From Cetorhinus maximus (lineage: Eukaryota), in contig NC_135890.1 in NCBI RefSeq assembly GCF_964194155.1, forward strand, positions 107,198,001-107,262,000: 64,000 nt of DNA, in the 5' to 3' direction. Positions 4,354-64,000 of this stretch are shown here, piece by piece (positions within the stretch are counted from its first letter, which is position 1; each line of letters opens with the position of its first letter). Below the pieces are notes generated by a model. The model was not told where the DNA came from. It was given only the letters and a program-made list of their open reading frames with translations, and did not search any database. Position numbers and translations under genes: made by a program.

Positions 4354-4821
4354 TTAACCACCTCGTAGACGTAGCATGAGGAAGATGGTGCTCTCAGGCT
4401 GAATATTGTAGTCGGCGAGTGTCCGACCATCCTCCAGCTGTTTCCCCTCGCACACCAGACGCTGCTGATTGGCTGGGACACCCTCCTGCTGTTGTACCCG
4501 TGCTCTAAAATCCCGAACAGACTCAGAGGGATGAACGTCATATGTAGATGTTTTCCCCTTGTCATTCTTCAGGAATATCTGCATGCACTCCTCGTTCTTG
4601 ACAATCAGCATGACCTCATGACTGGGAGAGACATTGTAGTCAGACAGCCTCCTGCTGTCCTGCAGCTCTTCAGTGTTTCCATTTTGCACCACCAGGCGCT
4701 GTCGGAAATGGGGCACCTTGGTTCTTTCATATATCATCTTCTTCAGAGCTGACACTTGGATGGAATGGTCAATATCAAGTTCAATAACCTCACCGGTCAT
4801 AAACTTCACCCGGAGTCTCAT
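4354..4821 (-). CDS. ISG15: ISG15-like di-ubiquitin protein, type A copy 1 (155 aa, ends LRLRGG-stop)
   Basis: Two tandem UBL domains ([49 protein letters not shown]). Single coding exon with acceptor ttcatttcttaacag 12 nt before the ATG. ISREs upstream. Confidence 0.92.
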
Positions 4822-6393
4822 CTTGTCAAATTTCTGTTAAGAAATGAACAAGATATCAGTGACGGAGATGCTGTGTATTGTGTATCAGTCACATAATACT
4901 ATTTTGAACATGCAGTACATTGTCCAGACAATCATAGAATCTAGGGAACTAATGCATTGTGTAATCTGCACCTACTGTACTCCCAACTCAGTCAAACGCC
5001 TGTCAGTATTTTATTCCCTATCGGTGCAATGCTGCACACAAAGCCATGGACTGCTGCAAATACCGAGCAGCCAGCATCTATTGACAGATTAGAGCCTTTT
5101 GCACTTGATATATGAACTCTGTTTCTCTCTTCACAGATGCTGCTAGGTCTGTTGAGTTTTATCAGCATTTTCTGTTTTAATTCTTATTTTCTTCTGTTTG
5201 TACATTGGATTTCAGCATCGCTGCCAAGGCTAGCGTTTATTCCCCAAAATTAATTGCCCTTGTGAAGGTGGTGGTGAGCTGCCTTCTTAAACCGCTGCAG
5301 TGTGTATGTGGTATAGGTCCCACAAGATGCCTCACTTGCTTAAATACAACTTTGATGTTCAGGGCAGTCACTCTCACTTCTAGAATTTATCTGATCTGTC
5401 ACCTTTGGATCAAGTTGTAACGAGGTGTGGAACTCAGTGGTGGTCCTAGGAGAACCCAAAATGTGATGAGTTAACATTTCAGGTGTGAATCCTTTGTGGG
5501 AATTGGAAGATATAAAAATGATCCCACTCCTCACATGTTTCGCCGGCTCACCCACATTCCCATATCGGCAACATTTCGATGTCATGTCTGTTTTCCAGTT
5601 TGAATGAGGCAGAAACTAAGTTAGAAATATTTGTGCAACTTATATTCTGAATTTATGTTGGAGTATTGAAGCTATCGGGTATCTGCTGCGCACACAGTTG
5701 CAATACTCGGTTTTTGCCACAAGAGTGACCCAAGTAACGTGTAACATGAGCCGTGAATGAACGGGCTTCACTTGTGGGGAGCGCTGAACATTTAAACAGC
5801 CAACAGCAGAGTTCTCTAAACCAGGAACGATGAAACTGTTCTTCGTTGTGCAGAATTCCATCACAGCTTCGTTCGTTTTAGACACTGCACTCATGATGAA
5901 ATTAGATTTGTCAGGCTGCCCAAAACCTACATCTGCCCTGGGAATATAGGAATGATTTATCTCACTCACATCTCTCTGTTTAACTTTGGGTATATTCTCT
6001 TCCACTGTCGCCACATTGAGAGGATATTATTTTATCTTAAATTGACTGAGATTCAATATAACCCATTCGAGCTCCCAACATAAATTCACCCTCAAACGTA
6101 TCTTACTATATTGTTTTAAAAAAGCAATGACCCTTGTAATCTTAGTTAATGAATGTTTAATATATTATTTCGAATATTTGAACACCCCCGGTTAGAATAT
6201 CTGAGAACGGGTGTCACATAAACATTAGATCTGTGTCTCCAACAGGATTGAGTTTTTCAATGACTTTCTTTCCATTCTCACCGGGTTTTAATAATAATAA
6301 TTTATCAGAAATTGCATCTGAGATTCAGAACAAAGCAATTTCCACACCAGAAACAGAATATTGAAATTGCCCCGAAAGGCAGAATGAACTCAC

Positions 6394-6590
6394 AGTCCTT
6401 GCTGGAAGCACAGGTCCAGGAAAGTTCAGCTGCTGAATAATTTCTGATGCACTTTTTCTGCGCAGTTGGTCCTTTCTGTTTCCCTTCGCACCGACTCTCA
6501 GATCTGGACGGAGTATGTGAATCAAGCTCTTTGCTTCTGCTGCTCTGTATCTTGCTCTGTGCGTCTCTCCGTTAAACAACTCTGTCTGCG
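6394..6590 (-). other. Predicted non-coding exon 1 of ISG15-A1
   Basis: Donor ACT|gtgagt at 6394/6393, no ATG in the exon, homologous to exon 1 of the B copies, TATA-like ATAAAA at 6613-6618. The TSS is approximate. Confidence 0.65.
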
Positions 6591-6612
6591 CGCGTCTCCG
6601 GCTCCCTCCTCC

Positions 6613-60454: not shown

Positions 60455-61140
60455 TCATTTTTCAATTCATTTATGGGATGTGGGCCTCGCTGGCTAGACC
60501 ATCACCTATTGCCCATCCCTAATTGCCCTTGAGAAGTGGTGATGAGCTGCTTTCTTGAATCACTGCAGCCCATGTGGTATAGGTACACCCACAGTGCTGT
60601 TAAGGAGGGTGGTAATGGTAGAGTGTGGGATATGCTGGGCCGTACAATTCTGGTGCTGCTGGTGGCCCACAGAGCCTGCTGTCCAGTCTTGACCTGTTTG
60701 AAATCTAGACCATTTAGCAAAGCGGTAGAGCCACACAACACAATGGGGTGTATCCTCTTTGTGATGATGGGACTTTGTCTCTGCATGGACTGTGCTGTGG
60801 TCACTCCTACCACTACCATCATGGACAGATGCATTGGCAGCATGTTGGTGAAGATGAGGTCAAGTACATTTTTCCCCCTCTTCTTGGCTCCCACACCAAC
60901 TGCCCGCTGCCCAGTCTAGCAGCTATGTTCTTTAGGACTCAGCCAGCTTGGTTTGTGCTGCTGCTTCCAAGCATTGAAGCCCCCCACCAGGATTCCCCTC
61001 AGACCATCCTCCAAATGGTGTTCAACATTCAGCAGGAGTTCTCCTTGCCCCTGTCATGCCATGAGACTTCATGGGGGTGCTGGAGTCAAGGTTGACGACT
61101 CAACCATATACCACTGTGCCAGCAGGCCTGACGGATCTGT
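60455..61140 (-). mobile_element. Internally deleted LINE of the same family as 17611-19251
   Basis: Its 3' end is the reverse complement of ~19110-19240 (gggatgtgggcctcgctggctag..ccctaattgcccttgagaag). An APE remnant (VLDLIFTN) lies upstream. Confidence 0.65.
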
Positions 61141-61479
61141 CCTGTCGGTGGAATTTGAGGTTCCCTGGAGCATTAGCCTGGGTTGTTGGATTACTAGTAT
61201 AGTGAAAATATCACTATGCCGCCGCATGCCCTGTACAAAGCTTCATTCTTTCAGGCCTGTTGCAATACAACCAATTTTAATAACTTCGCTTTGTTGACAC
61301 AAGATTCCTTTTTTATGTATTTACCAGTTTCCATATTACACATGTTCTCATCTCTAGACTGAATTTCTTTAATGTCCTTCCTGGTGTTTTCCTAAACTTC
61401 ATCCTCCATCCACATAAAGTGCAGATAATTGTTTTCAGTCAGAAATTATAATCATTCTTTTATTTGTCGAATGCATAAT

Positions 61480-64000
61480 CTATGACTCTGTGACTATCAT
61501 GCACTCATTCTGATTCAGCCCCTATGATGAAAGGCACTGACTTTATTTTATACCCCCTGTGACACCTCAACTGTAAGGAAACAGGGAAGGGATTACAGTG
61601 ATGTGGCTGATAATGCACGATGGCATCTCCACATTGGTAACAGTGATGTAAATTATATAATTCTAGTTTTTGTACAGATTGAGGAGAAGTTACAAAAACT
61701 GAATTTGGCCACACAATGTCCTGTGTCCTGAGCAGTGATCCATAGACAAGTGCTTGATGGCCAGCACAGATACGATGGGCCGAAGCGTCTGTTTTTGTGC
61801 TGTATAACCACATGACGCTATGACTCTAATACAATATTTCCTGGGCAGGTGCCTGAGTTGAGTGTTTGGAGTTGGTTTATGTGAGATTTGGGGAGAGTGA
61901 GGGAAGGTGAAGGTGAGGTTGATCAGCCCTGATTTGAATGGCAGAGCTGGTTCAAAGGACTAAACCTCTACTCCTTCTGATGTTCTTGGTTGATTTGGCA
62001 GTGCACCAATATTGTGAAAAGCTCGCCAAATGAAAGATTGCTTCTATTCTGAACTGATAGTGAGGGTGATGACAGATTGAAATACAAATCTAGAGCTAAC
62101 GCAAAAGGGCAGAGGAATCAGTTCTCCTCTTAAAAATTAAATTAGTCATTTTGGCCGAGATAATCATCTTATCCTGATGTAACATGTAACTGAGCTAGAG
62201 AAGCTCTCCACCAAAAGTGCGCCCTCAAAATGGCTGCTGTATTCCCCTTCCACATTCTGGAAGCAAATTAACTCTTGCAATTAAATGAAACAAGGGAGTG
62301 GGGTTCCCCATATTTTCCTTTCTTTGTGCCCGGTTACCATCCCTGAAAATCAGCACCAGTTTACAAGTGGCAATTCTTAACCAATCAGAGATTGGGAAGA
62401 TGAAGAGGAGAAAGGTGCAGGAGGCCAATCAGGATGAAGATGCCGAGAAGTAAGGTGGGTCCAAACACCTCACGACCATCAAACAGGCACGAGCACTGAT
62501 CCTTGCAGCACCCAACTAGTTACATCCTGCCAACCAGAAAATGGCCCGTTTATTGCTACTCTCTGTTTTCTGACCATTAACCGATTCTCTGTTCATGTAA
62601 TATATTAGCCCCAATCCCATGAGCCCCAATCTTTTGAAATAAACTCTTGGGCGGCACATTATCGAATGCCTTTGGAAAATCCAATTAAAATAAATCCACT
62701 GGTTCCCCCTCATCTACCCTGCAACTCAGAACCTCAACAAACTTTAACAAATATATAGACACAATTTCCCTTTCATAGTTCCATGCTGACTTTGACCAAT
62801 CAAATTATGTTTTTCTAAGTGCCCCATTATCATTTTGCTGATAATAAATTGCCGCACGTTCCTTACTGTTGTCGTCAGACGTCTACGCCTCCCTGTTTCT
62901 ATCTCCTTTCGTTTCTTCAATAGTTGGGTTATGTTTGATCGTTCCAATCCATGAGGACTGTTTGAGTATCTATGGAATCGTGCAAGACCCAATGCGCCCA
63001 CTATCTCTGTAGCCAGATCTTTTAAACCCTAGGAAGACGGCGATGGGTCCAGGGAATCTGTTACCTTTTAGTCCCATGAATTTCTCTAGCACTTTTTTCA
63101 GGATACTATTAGAGTAATGCTGCGGACTTTAATCTTCATAGCGACTGGATAAAATAAATCTGCTGTAGTAATGTGGGGGATAAGGTTATAGAATGCAGTC
63201 AAAAATGTTTTCTAGATCAGTGTCAGCAACCAGCCACAAGGAGAGGCCCCTAATTGTGGCACTAGATAGGGAACACAATCTTAGGGACTCCTGGCTGTGG
63301 CTCCAGAGAACAGTATGCATCTCTCTGATTATACTGTCCTCTGCCATTACCACATTCCTCCCCCACAGCCAACACTCAATGTAAATGGCCTCATGTAGCA
63401 TGGTGCTGTGGTCTGTTTTCTCAACACCAGATTTTTTTATCATTCAGACAGGCAGCAGGAAGCCCATGCCTGTTAGATAAGGACAATGGCTGAGGTCCCC
63501 TGCACTGCACGATTGTGCTATGCTGTCTATGTTCCTATTTTCTTATCCGCCTTGTGTCTCCTTACCGACCTGACCCACAGTCACACCGTCCTGGACCTGA
63601 CCACTAATTAGACACTATGGGCACTACCTAACGTAAGGAGTGTGGCTGCCTCCTGGATAAAGTGTCCAGCTAACAGTCTTGCTCCCTAATGCCCCACAAT
63701 GCCTGCATCTCAGACTCCAGCTCAACAAATCCAAAGTTGTACTTCCTTGGGATTCAGACACTTACTGTGGATGTGGTTGTCAGCAATTGCAATGCTGTCC
63801 ACAAACTCCCACATGCTGCTGTTGTGGTAAAGCACCTGCACTGTCATCACTTGCAGTCATTGGCACCACTCCAAAAAAAAACACAACTGCTCTGATCTGA
63901 GAGCCTCTTGTTGAATCTTGTGGCTGCATTGAGTTTCTGGAATGTCTCAGTCACCAGGGTGTCCCTGACATTATGCCACACCTCCGGCATTGCATTGCAA
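61480..64000. repeat. Third copy of the ISG15 A-B intergenic segment (runs off the window end)
   Basis: Colinear with ~7775-10520 and ~29130-31840, with a ~200-bp deletion at ~63850. Confidence 0.92.

Follow-up and report, generated by a model that had tools for sequence, protein, structure and literature searches.

A mixed cluster of likely ISG15 copies and OAS/OASL genes in the shark Cetorhinus maximus

The genes for ISG15 and OASL, both interferon effectors with two ubiquitin-like (UBL) domains, are unlinked in human. In a 64,000-nucleotide stretch of Cetorhinus maximus DNA (contig NC_135890.1; hereafter the window), genes resembling both lie side by side, which raises the question of whether this arrangement preserves an ancestral neighbourhood, in which the two arose or are co-regulated, or was assembled later. 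The answer that we consider probable is that the window belongs to one mixed cluster of 19 copies of what is likely shark ISG15 and eight OAS/OASL loci, likely switched by interferon through their own ISREs and likely multiplied from an ancestral head-to-head pair. The genes themselves are known; their arrangement is apparently undescribed, and a literature search found no earlier description of it.

The features of the window are collected in Table 1. The original prediction placed four ISG15-like genes on the minus strand head-to-head with an OASL gene on the plus strand. Four two-UBL (di-UBL) frames ending in LRLRGG-stop and a six-exon OASL were indeed found, but the fourth frame (the second type B copy) lacks an ATG. 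As no in-frame ATG was found in its predicted first exon either, this copy, judging from its sequence, is likely a pseudogene or truncated. Together the frames form A/B pairs; their repeat unit measures 21.4 kb, with an identity of 95.7% over 10.9 kb. The array had also been expected to resume after OASL; spacer DNA of the array unit does reappear at 61481-64000, with 88-91% identity to 7769-10163 and 29166-31486, but it is devoid of di-UBL frames, of which the next is at window coordinate 87.8 kb.

Table 1. Features annotated in the window (positions counted from its first nucleotide).
Feature	Position	Strand	Remarks
ISG15-like type A coding exon	4354-4833	-	acceptor 4833, ATG 4821, 155 aa, ends LRLRGG-stop (frame 4354-4821)
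Type A non-coding first exon	6394-6590	-	5' end approximate, no ATG inside; splice joint 4833/6394 in RNA-type runs of a related species
Two ISRE-like sites upstream of type A exon 1	6713-6723, 6826-6836	-	
ISG15-like type B coding exon	12430-12909	-	ATG 12897, 155 aa (frame 12430-12897)
Type B predicted first exon and promoter	13960-14285	-	homology to type A exon 1; ISRE-like site 14276-14285
Second type A copy	25738-26217	-	ATG 26205; ISRE-like sites 28103-28113, 28213-28222
Second type B copy	33665-34144	-	start codon ATA; frame 33665-34132; ISRE-like site 35517-35526
Repeat-rich interval between head-to-head promoters	36404-42469	.	transposase frame, then satellite
DDE_Tnp_4 transposase frame	40169-40984	-	inside repeat-rich interval
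22-bp satellite	41579-42495	.	after DDE_Tnp_4 frame
Double ISRE-like site	43636-43651	+	~265 bp upstream of OASL ATG
OASL coding exon 1	43908-44081	+	RNA-type loose end continues into exon 2
OASL exon 2	46192-46492	+	GSSGKGT loop, D-x-D, third aspartate
OASL exon 3	49434-49609	+	splice joints in relative's RNA-type runs
OASL exon 4	51669-51919	+	joint 49607/51667
Degenerate duplicate of OASL exon 4	52931-53140	+	skipped in relative's transcripts (loose end 51920 to exon 5)
OASL exon 5	53601-53733	+	phase-0 donor
OASL exon 6	55303-55776	+	two UBL domains ending LRLRGG-KET; begins 4 codons before Met1-equivalent residue
Array-unit spacer DNA without coding copy	61481-64000	.	runs on to 65040, then next OASL upstream region

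Genome-wide, 19 of the 47 di-UBL matches were full-length. All 19 fall within C12:107.07-107.38 Mb, and 28 of the 29 OAS1_C matches within 107.24-107.42 Mb. The 19 free di-UBL genes thus form one cluster of about 350 kb with the eight OAS/OASL loci, with four head-to-head di-UBL/OAS pairs; no flanking gene was identified within 140 kb on its right-hand side. ISG15-like genes and OASL are therefore neighbours, as predicted, but OASL is not embedded in an ISG15 array: the window is the junction between a 16-copy di-UBL array and a mixed block of the eight OAS loci and three further di-UBL genes.

The OASL of the window (plus strand, 43908-55776, 502 aa) is intact, with GT-AG boundaries at all five introns, and has one OAS unit ahead of its two UBL domains. 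It carries the three catalytic aspartates (DADLV at 73, DFDILP at 148) that define the enzymatic type in the available text of PMC6307210, and would make 2-5A on binding dsRNA. Its LRLRGG-KET end could, by analogy with what is reported for chicken OASL, be trimmed and conjugated. In a PDB search with the tail, chicken OASL scored 47.3 bits, 7SBI was the best non-ubiquitin match, and no ISG15 appeared among the best 60 matches. A search for KEN domains returned just two IRE1 genes, RNase L not being among the hits; as a control family search returned nothing at all, this is no evidence of absence.

ISRE-like sites, defined as GAAAN1-2GAAAC, number 13 in the window against 1.7 expected (the copies not being independent), while the 112-kb flank gives a background of about 0.4% per 300-bp promoter. 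The predicted motifs are present upstream of all four di-UBL copies and of OASL; in the whole cluster, they precede all 19 free genes and four of the eight OAS loci, the other four being without the pattern. Between head-to-head genes, the sites are separated by some 8 kb in the window and by some 2 kb in the tightest pair. One bidirectional promoter for both genes was considered and dropped, because each gene class carries its own ISRE-like site. Going by these motifs, the free genes and OASL may be co-regulated, each being likely turned on by interferon via its own ISRE. Spliced transcripts of the type A gene and of OASL are present in a related species; the type B splice joint was not seen in its RNA-type runs (X15-X17 and X24, presumed to be RNA, none being recorded as such).

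The identity of the free genes is central to the question. Their 155-aa product contains Pfam PF00240 twice, and all 19 copies have the LRLRGG C-terminus, followed directly by a stop in 17 and by further residues in two; C-terminal LRLRGG/LRGG is given as a defining feature of ISG15 in the available part of PMC3445607. Both window types have a Phe before a QQRL-type motif (in 16 aligned rows, Phe 10, Tyr 3, other 3), the position of the interface Phe (F41) described for ISG15 in the accessible text of PMC8764230. In the PDB search with the first 100 aa, the best single-stretch score was that of ISG15 (53.6 bits), followed by di-ubiquitin (48.3) and chicken OASL (47.7). The predicted model matches mouse ISG15 with TM 0.84 and rmsd 2.0, versus TM 0.44-0.54 for di-ubiquitins, and the top 15 VIA rows of the fold comparison are all ISG15; since its pTM is 0.58, the domain orientation in the model is uncertain. 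Atlas scores rank ISG15 (0.95) above a cluster named Ubiquitin D (0.93). Grouping with FAT10, which would have spoken against the original prediction, was not observed: among the matches listed, the best 60 in sequence and the best 50 in fold, ISG15 is present and FAT10 absent. On sequence, motif and predicted fold (ISG15 sequences from ray-finned fish, amphibians and mammals do not figure in the trees discussed below), the free genes are likely shark ISG15 rather than FAT10 or an OASL tail. It appears improbable that they are instead a separate di-ubiquitin-derived family of cartilaginous fish, FAT10-like or convergent and not orthologous to ISG15. Such a family would suit their NCBI name (polyubiquitin-like), their whole-length identity (46-47% with di-ubiquitin, 29-38% with mammalian ISG15), the 57-58% identity of the C-domain to ubiquitin, and a targeted protein search with no bony-fish protein among its 22 candidates (18 named proteins from cartilaginous fish, the remainder unnamed or probably of the same species). 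It would also suit the location of agrin, which we take to be the neighbour of human ISG15, on another contig with no di-UBL gene there. However, the best single-stretch and fold matches are to ISG15, the LRLRGG end and the Phe are those of ISG15, and no other full-length di-UBL class turned up in the genome. As ISG15, the free proteins, with their ready LRLRGG end, would be conjugated to lysines; a genome search for E1_UFD, from the ISG15 conjugation machinery (UBA7, UBE2L6, HERC5-6), is uninformative because it returned nothing at all.

An assembly artefact is a very improbable source of the copy number or of the interleaving. The assembly does contain a 66-kb duplication (98.96% identity), and the depth evidence comes from contigs only, with no array-spanning read; but there is no N in 464 kb across the cluster, 18 of the 19 coding sequences are distinct, contig depths are roughly proportional to assembled copies (about 52-58 per copy in four of five collapsed DNA contigs, 70 in the fifth; hand-picked and rough only), and other species also show arrays and interleaving. 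Free di-UBL and OAS genes share a contig in all 11 testable shark and ray species, so that the linkage is not confined to this assembly or species. Neighbourhoods in these species were deduced from shared contigs, accession order and fused gene models rather than seen directly. Adjacent accessions or interleaving occur in six of the 11, while for the other five the evidence is the contig only, which does not imply adjacency. The accessions differ by 1-2 in Heptranchias, Hemitrygon and Mobula birostris and by 14 in Hypanus. In Carcharodon and Heterodontus, fused OAS models contain antisense di-UBL pieces (two of 17 models tested). Together with the match to ISG15, this linkage supports the proposed ancestral neighbourhood for sharks and rays, in whose ancestor the head-to-head pair that was multiplied by unequal crossing-over was likely already present; for jawed vertebrates as a whole, such a neighbourhood is only suggested, by a coelacanth gene model and a shared exon start.

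This exon start bears on the origin of the OASL tail. It occupies an identical position in all 19 free copies and the four complete di-UBL tail exons, and the exon-5 donors of all eight OAS loci are in phase 0. The coding exon of the free gene and the tail exon of OASL both start in phase 0, with four open codons ahead of the first UBL residue. They could therefore be ancient sisters descended from a single di-UBL exon, so that tails would be exchangeable by recombination in the preceding intron. One swap between neighbouring OAS genes joins a type-2 core to a type-1 tail (breakpoint 121,680, in the last intron). The coelacanth OASL tail, which sits between two OAS units in its gene models, matches the free-gene profile at 182 bits and the shark OASL-tail profile at 100, a suggestive resemblance to the free gene; it has no ISG15 among its best 60 PDB matches, and its Atlas scores are below 0.9. 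Since LRLRGG also ends the OASL tails of shark, ray, chimaera, coelacanth and lungfish, this ending looks ancestral, not avian. Our tentative reading is that ISG15 and the OASL tail are sister exon copies born here in early jawed vertebrates, that the exon is still swapped between neighbours (OAS genes in the shark; coelacanth OASL with its ISG15-type tail), that mammalian ISG15 left later, and that bird OASL, in its conjugating tail, retains the ancestral state.

It is rather unlikely, but less so than the preceding alternatives, that the genes are ISG15 and OASL with a linkage secondary in cartilaginous fish, their di-UBL modules having arisen separately from ubiquitin genes and been joined later. 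The shark OASL tail is, by domain, 27%/45% identical to the free gene and 35%/43% to ubiquitin; being no closer to the former, it gives no sign of sisterhood in its sequence. AU tests do not reject a single clade of OASL tails (p 0.17, 0.19, 0.15), and the N-domain tree keeps these tails to one side (72/72). The trees were built from tails only and leave out Amblyraja, for want of a second UBL, as well as three long mammalian rows; as tests of tail origin they are not decisive. The local gene order also differs from human. The contig carries HNF1, ANAPC5, a Deltex, P2X genes and a polyubiquitin, which we take to be genes of human 12q24, and P2X7 presumably flanks human OASL. The flanking P2X gene was considered as P2RX7, in the human order, and this was dropped, both exons matching P2X2 best; the ANAPC5-linked P2X gene is 10 Mb from the cluster. 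Against a secondary linkage stand the exon start and phase common to free gene and tail, and the preference of the coelacanth tail, between its OAS units, for the free-gene profile.

Among known systems, FAT10/UBD is likewise a free two-UBL protein with a diglycine end, but has a different C-terminal motif and lies in the MHC. The mammalian OAS1-3 cluster and OASL share with the shark a tandem OAS expansion, while all three mammalian OASL tails examined lack LRLRGG; to our knowledge, the human OAS cluster contains no ISG15. ISG15 of human, mouse and teleosts has in common with the shark genes the two UBLs, the terminal LRLRGG, the Phe before the QQRL-type motif, the ISRE-like sites and the predicted domain arrangement. 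The shark copies differ in that 17 of 19 end at the diglycine without a pro-peptide, in lying with OAS genes and not beside agrin, and in their number, 19 versus 2-4 in some teleosts and one in human and zebrafish (10.1101/693333, as far as its available text goes). The expansion would thus far exceed the 1-4 copies given in the published text available, and many shark and ray 'polyubiquitin-like' genes would be re-annotated as ISG15. The accessible part of PMC6307210 leaves the source of the OASL tail at 'domain fusion of UBL', and the available text on chicken OASL reports ISG15-like behaviour without a genomic explanation; with a conserved ISG15-OASL neighbourhood and a shared exon boundary, both become questions of synteny and phylogeny. 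Avian OASL (chicken, PDB 7SBI; available text of PMC8764230) resembles that of the shark in its one OAS unit, three catalytic aspartates and di-UBL tail ending in LRLRGG plus a few residues. Birds, however, have no free ISG15 and one OASL, whereas the shark has several OASL copies, with the free gene and OASL side by side.

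The minus strand of the window contains four frames of 155 codons each, which encode two ubiquitin-family domains and end in LRLRGG-stop (stand-alone ISG15-like di-UBL genes, hereafter free genes). Their types, A and B, alternate within a repeat unit of 21.4 kb. The closest named proteins are from lamniform sharks, Cetorhinus maximus rows (probably the same species) having been left out of the support. The original prediction of four ISG15-like genes holds for the frames and their termini, but the fourth has ATA at the start position, and its predicted first exon has no in-frame ATG. 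This fourth gene lies head-to-head with OASL, which has six exons, GT-AG introns and 502 aa, with D-x-D and the third aspartate present and a di-UBL tail ending in LRLRGG-KET. The array had also been predicted to resume past OASL; the final 2.5 kb of the window are indeed similar to array spacer, but gene-free. One B unit carries a LINE-type reverse-transcriptase insertion that is absent from the next.

Coordinates of features in and around the cluster (window numbering, extended beyond 64 kb, unless a contig or a fetched stretch, L, is named)
Feature	Position	Strand	Fetched stretch
All 19 full-length di-UBL genes	C12:107.07-107.38 Mb		
28 of 29 OAS1_C matches	107.24-107.42 Mb		
Conserved promoter element	6640 and 14220	-	
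LINE-type insertion	15155-16819	+	
Window OASL	43908-55776	+	
66-kb segment, two copies	55.5-121.7 kb; 151.2-217.5 kb		
Read-through B-type copies	88265; 184044		L003, L012-L013
Chimeric OAS gene (breakpoint 121,680)	112.3-123.5 kb		L005-L006
Last OAS gene	~222.4 kb		L016:8390-8647
173-codon frame		-	L026:3473-3991
Divergent OAS-family gene	C2:65.17-65.18 Mb		L044-L045

Genome-wide, 47 matches were found, and every full-length di-UBL gene falls on C12, the contig holding the window; the one OAS1_C match outside the cluster is a divergent OAS on contig C2. The OAS-family gene located there has about 30% identity and no UBL match. Across 464 kb of N-free sequence, the cluster consists of 16 free genes in eight A/B pairs, then eight OAS loci and three further B-type genes, with four head-to-head free-gene/OAS pairs spaced by 3.2-9.8 kb. 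Judged by exon matches, the OAS loci divide into three complete OASL genes of type 1 (one of two OAS classes), three that are missing exon 3 or some of the tail, a hybrid with a type-2 core and type-1 tail, and a final type-2 locus that terminates in a single UBL and CILM. The free-gene coding sequences are distinct in 18 of 19 cases, and types A and B agree more closely in the C-half (94% identity) than in the N-half (86%). In two B-type copies the stop that should follow LRLRGG is gone, and the frame reads through for 39 codons; both have OAS partners with neither exon 3 nor the ISRE pattern.

The 66-kb segment present twice (98.96% identity) would be either a very recent duplication or a spot where the assembly needs a check. 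In five hand-picked collapsed DNA contigs, depth roughly follows the number of assembled copies, at about 52-58 for each copy in four contigs and 70 in the fifth, although contig depth is not copy number and the run may come from the source sample. That the linkage itself is confined to one assembly or species is contradicted by other sharks and rays, among which the arrangement is conserved: a free gene and an OAS/OASL gene share a contig in all 11 species with data for both (Carcharodon, Heterodontus, Hemiscyllium, Mustelus, two Scyliorhinus, Heptranchias, Hemitrygon, Hypanus and two Mobula; Rhincodon and Pristiophorus are outside this count). Their accession numbers, whose order we infer to follow genomic position, differ by 1-2 in three species and by 14 in a fourth. 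Antisense free-gene pieces inside fused OAS models (2 of 17) show interleaving in Carcharodon and Heterodontus.

Contig C12 also holds HNF1, ANAPC5, a Deltex, two P2X genes and a polyubiquitin, which are 12q24 genes in human. The P2X gene adjoining the cluster best matches P2X2, so the human local order is not retained. Between it and the array lies a 173-codon frame with a weak, sub-threshold T5orf172 match (E 0.009). Agrin is on contig C15, where no di-UBL occurs in 50 kb of sequence taken from the 5' end of the gene.

In a PDB search, the first 100 residues of the free protein gave ISG15 as top single-stretch match (53.6 bits), followed by di-ubiquitin (48.3) and chicken OASL (47.7 bits); for the OASL tail, chicken OASL was the top non-ubiquitin match, and ISG15 was absent among the best 60. 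The predicted free-protein model (pLDDT 86.5, pTM 0.58) matches mouse ISG15 with TM 0.84, and rows 1-15 of the VIA fold listing are all ISG15. Free proteins also carry the Phe and QQRL-type motif reported as ISG15 features in the accessible part of PMC8764230. Arguing against ISG15, the free protein is over its whole length closer in identity to di-ubiquitin than to ISG15, and in the Atlas a cluster named Ubiquitin D ranks shortly behind ISG15. On balance it is very probable that the free genes are ISG15 orthologues, bony-vertebrate ISG15 being in none of the trees.

All 19 free genes have a splice acceptor four open codons upstream of the ATG, and each of the four OASL tail exons that are complete has its acceptor four codons ahead of the residue aligned with the free-gene Met. 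OAS exon-5 donors are in phase 0 in 8/8 loci. Together, these boundaries make the two exons interchangeable in frame. Tail exchange between OAS neighbours is visible in the chimeric gene, where a type-2 core meets a type-1 di-UBL tail in the last intron. By domain, the coelacanth OASL tail shares 38%/66% identity with the free gene, 34%/51% with a ubiquitin dimer and 21%/42% with its shark counterpart. It scores 182 bits with the free-gene profile versus 100 with the shark OASL-tail profile; the latter scores higher for the tails of zebra finch, bat and two marsupials, and lungfish is tied. In trees the coelacanth tail came out as sister of the free genes (91/85 and 87/83, not starred), but the N-domain tree gave this grouping no support, and monophyly of the OASL tails was not rejected by AU tests (p 0.17, 0.19, 0.15). 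A PDB search with the coelacanth tail had no ISG15 among its best 60 matches. The coelacanth model may be a mis-join with an adjacent free gene, which would itself amount to linkage. The shark arrangement offers a concrete, testable lead on how the OASL tail originated.

ISRE motifs had been noted at the window's four ISG15-like genes and OASL; across the locus, GAAAN1-2GAAAC occurs upstream of 19/19 free genes and four of eight OAS loci. Half of the ISRE-like sites in the region (33/66) sit within upstream windows making up 7% of it, the copies not being independent; each of three independent promoter classes has one, with a chance of about 0.4% each (flank rate 3 in 112 kb). Both promoter types keep TGACGTTC, a CRE-like half site, between the ISRE-like site and a TATA-like box. 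The type A intron joint and the OASL joints were each seen in runs of a related species (two studies each), and in one same-species run a contig end coincides with a free-gene acceptor, the RNA nature of all these runs being a guess. Type B splicing was not seen in the runs that showed the type A joint.

By analogy with known pathways, interferon would induce free genes and OASL through separate ISREs, the free protein would be conjugated via its exposed diglycine as ISG15 is, and OASL would make 2-5A dependent on dsRNA. The OASL tail, once trimmed, might be conjugated too, as reported for chicken OASL in the accessible part of PMC8764230. The structure of the cluster suggests that it grew through unequal crossing-over and that the free-gene and OASL tail exons descend from one ancestor. 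A genome-wide KEN-domain search, too insensitive to indicate absence, found two IRE1 genes only and no RNase L.

The genes are known, and their arrangement appears undescribed so far. ISG15 is reported as one-to-one between zebrafish and human, and OAS as lost in teleosts, in the accessible part of 10.1101/693333. The accessible text of the OAS evolution paper PMC6307210 does not mention ISG15, and no description of the ISG15-OASL linkage was met in the accessible parts of PMC6002735, PMC8138431, PMC10300353, PMC4337036 and PMC3445607 or elsewhere in the literature searched. Because subscription journals, frequent outlets for fish immunology, were outside that search, novelty is probable rather than proven.

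The CILM end of the last OAS gene, following its single UBL, is a CaaX-type box. Comparable ends occur in OAS models of shark, ray, coelacanth, caecilian and worm-lizard, and human OAS1 p46 has a prenylation signal; the spread of these ends suggests that the signal is ancient.
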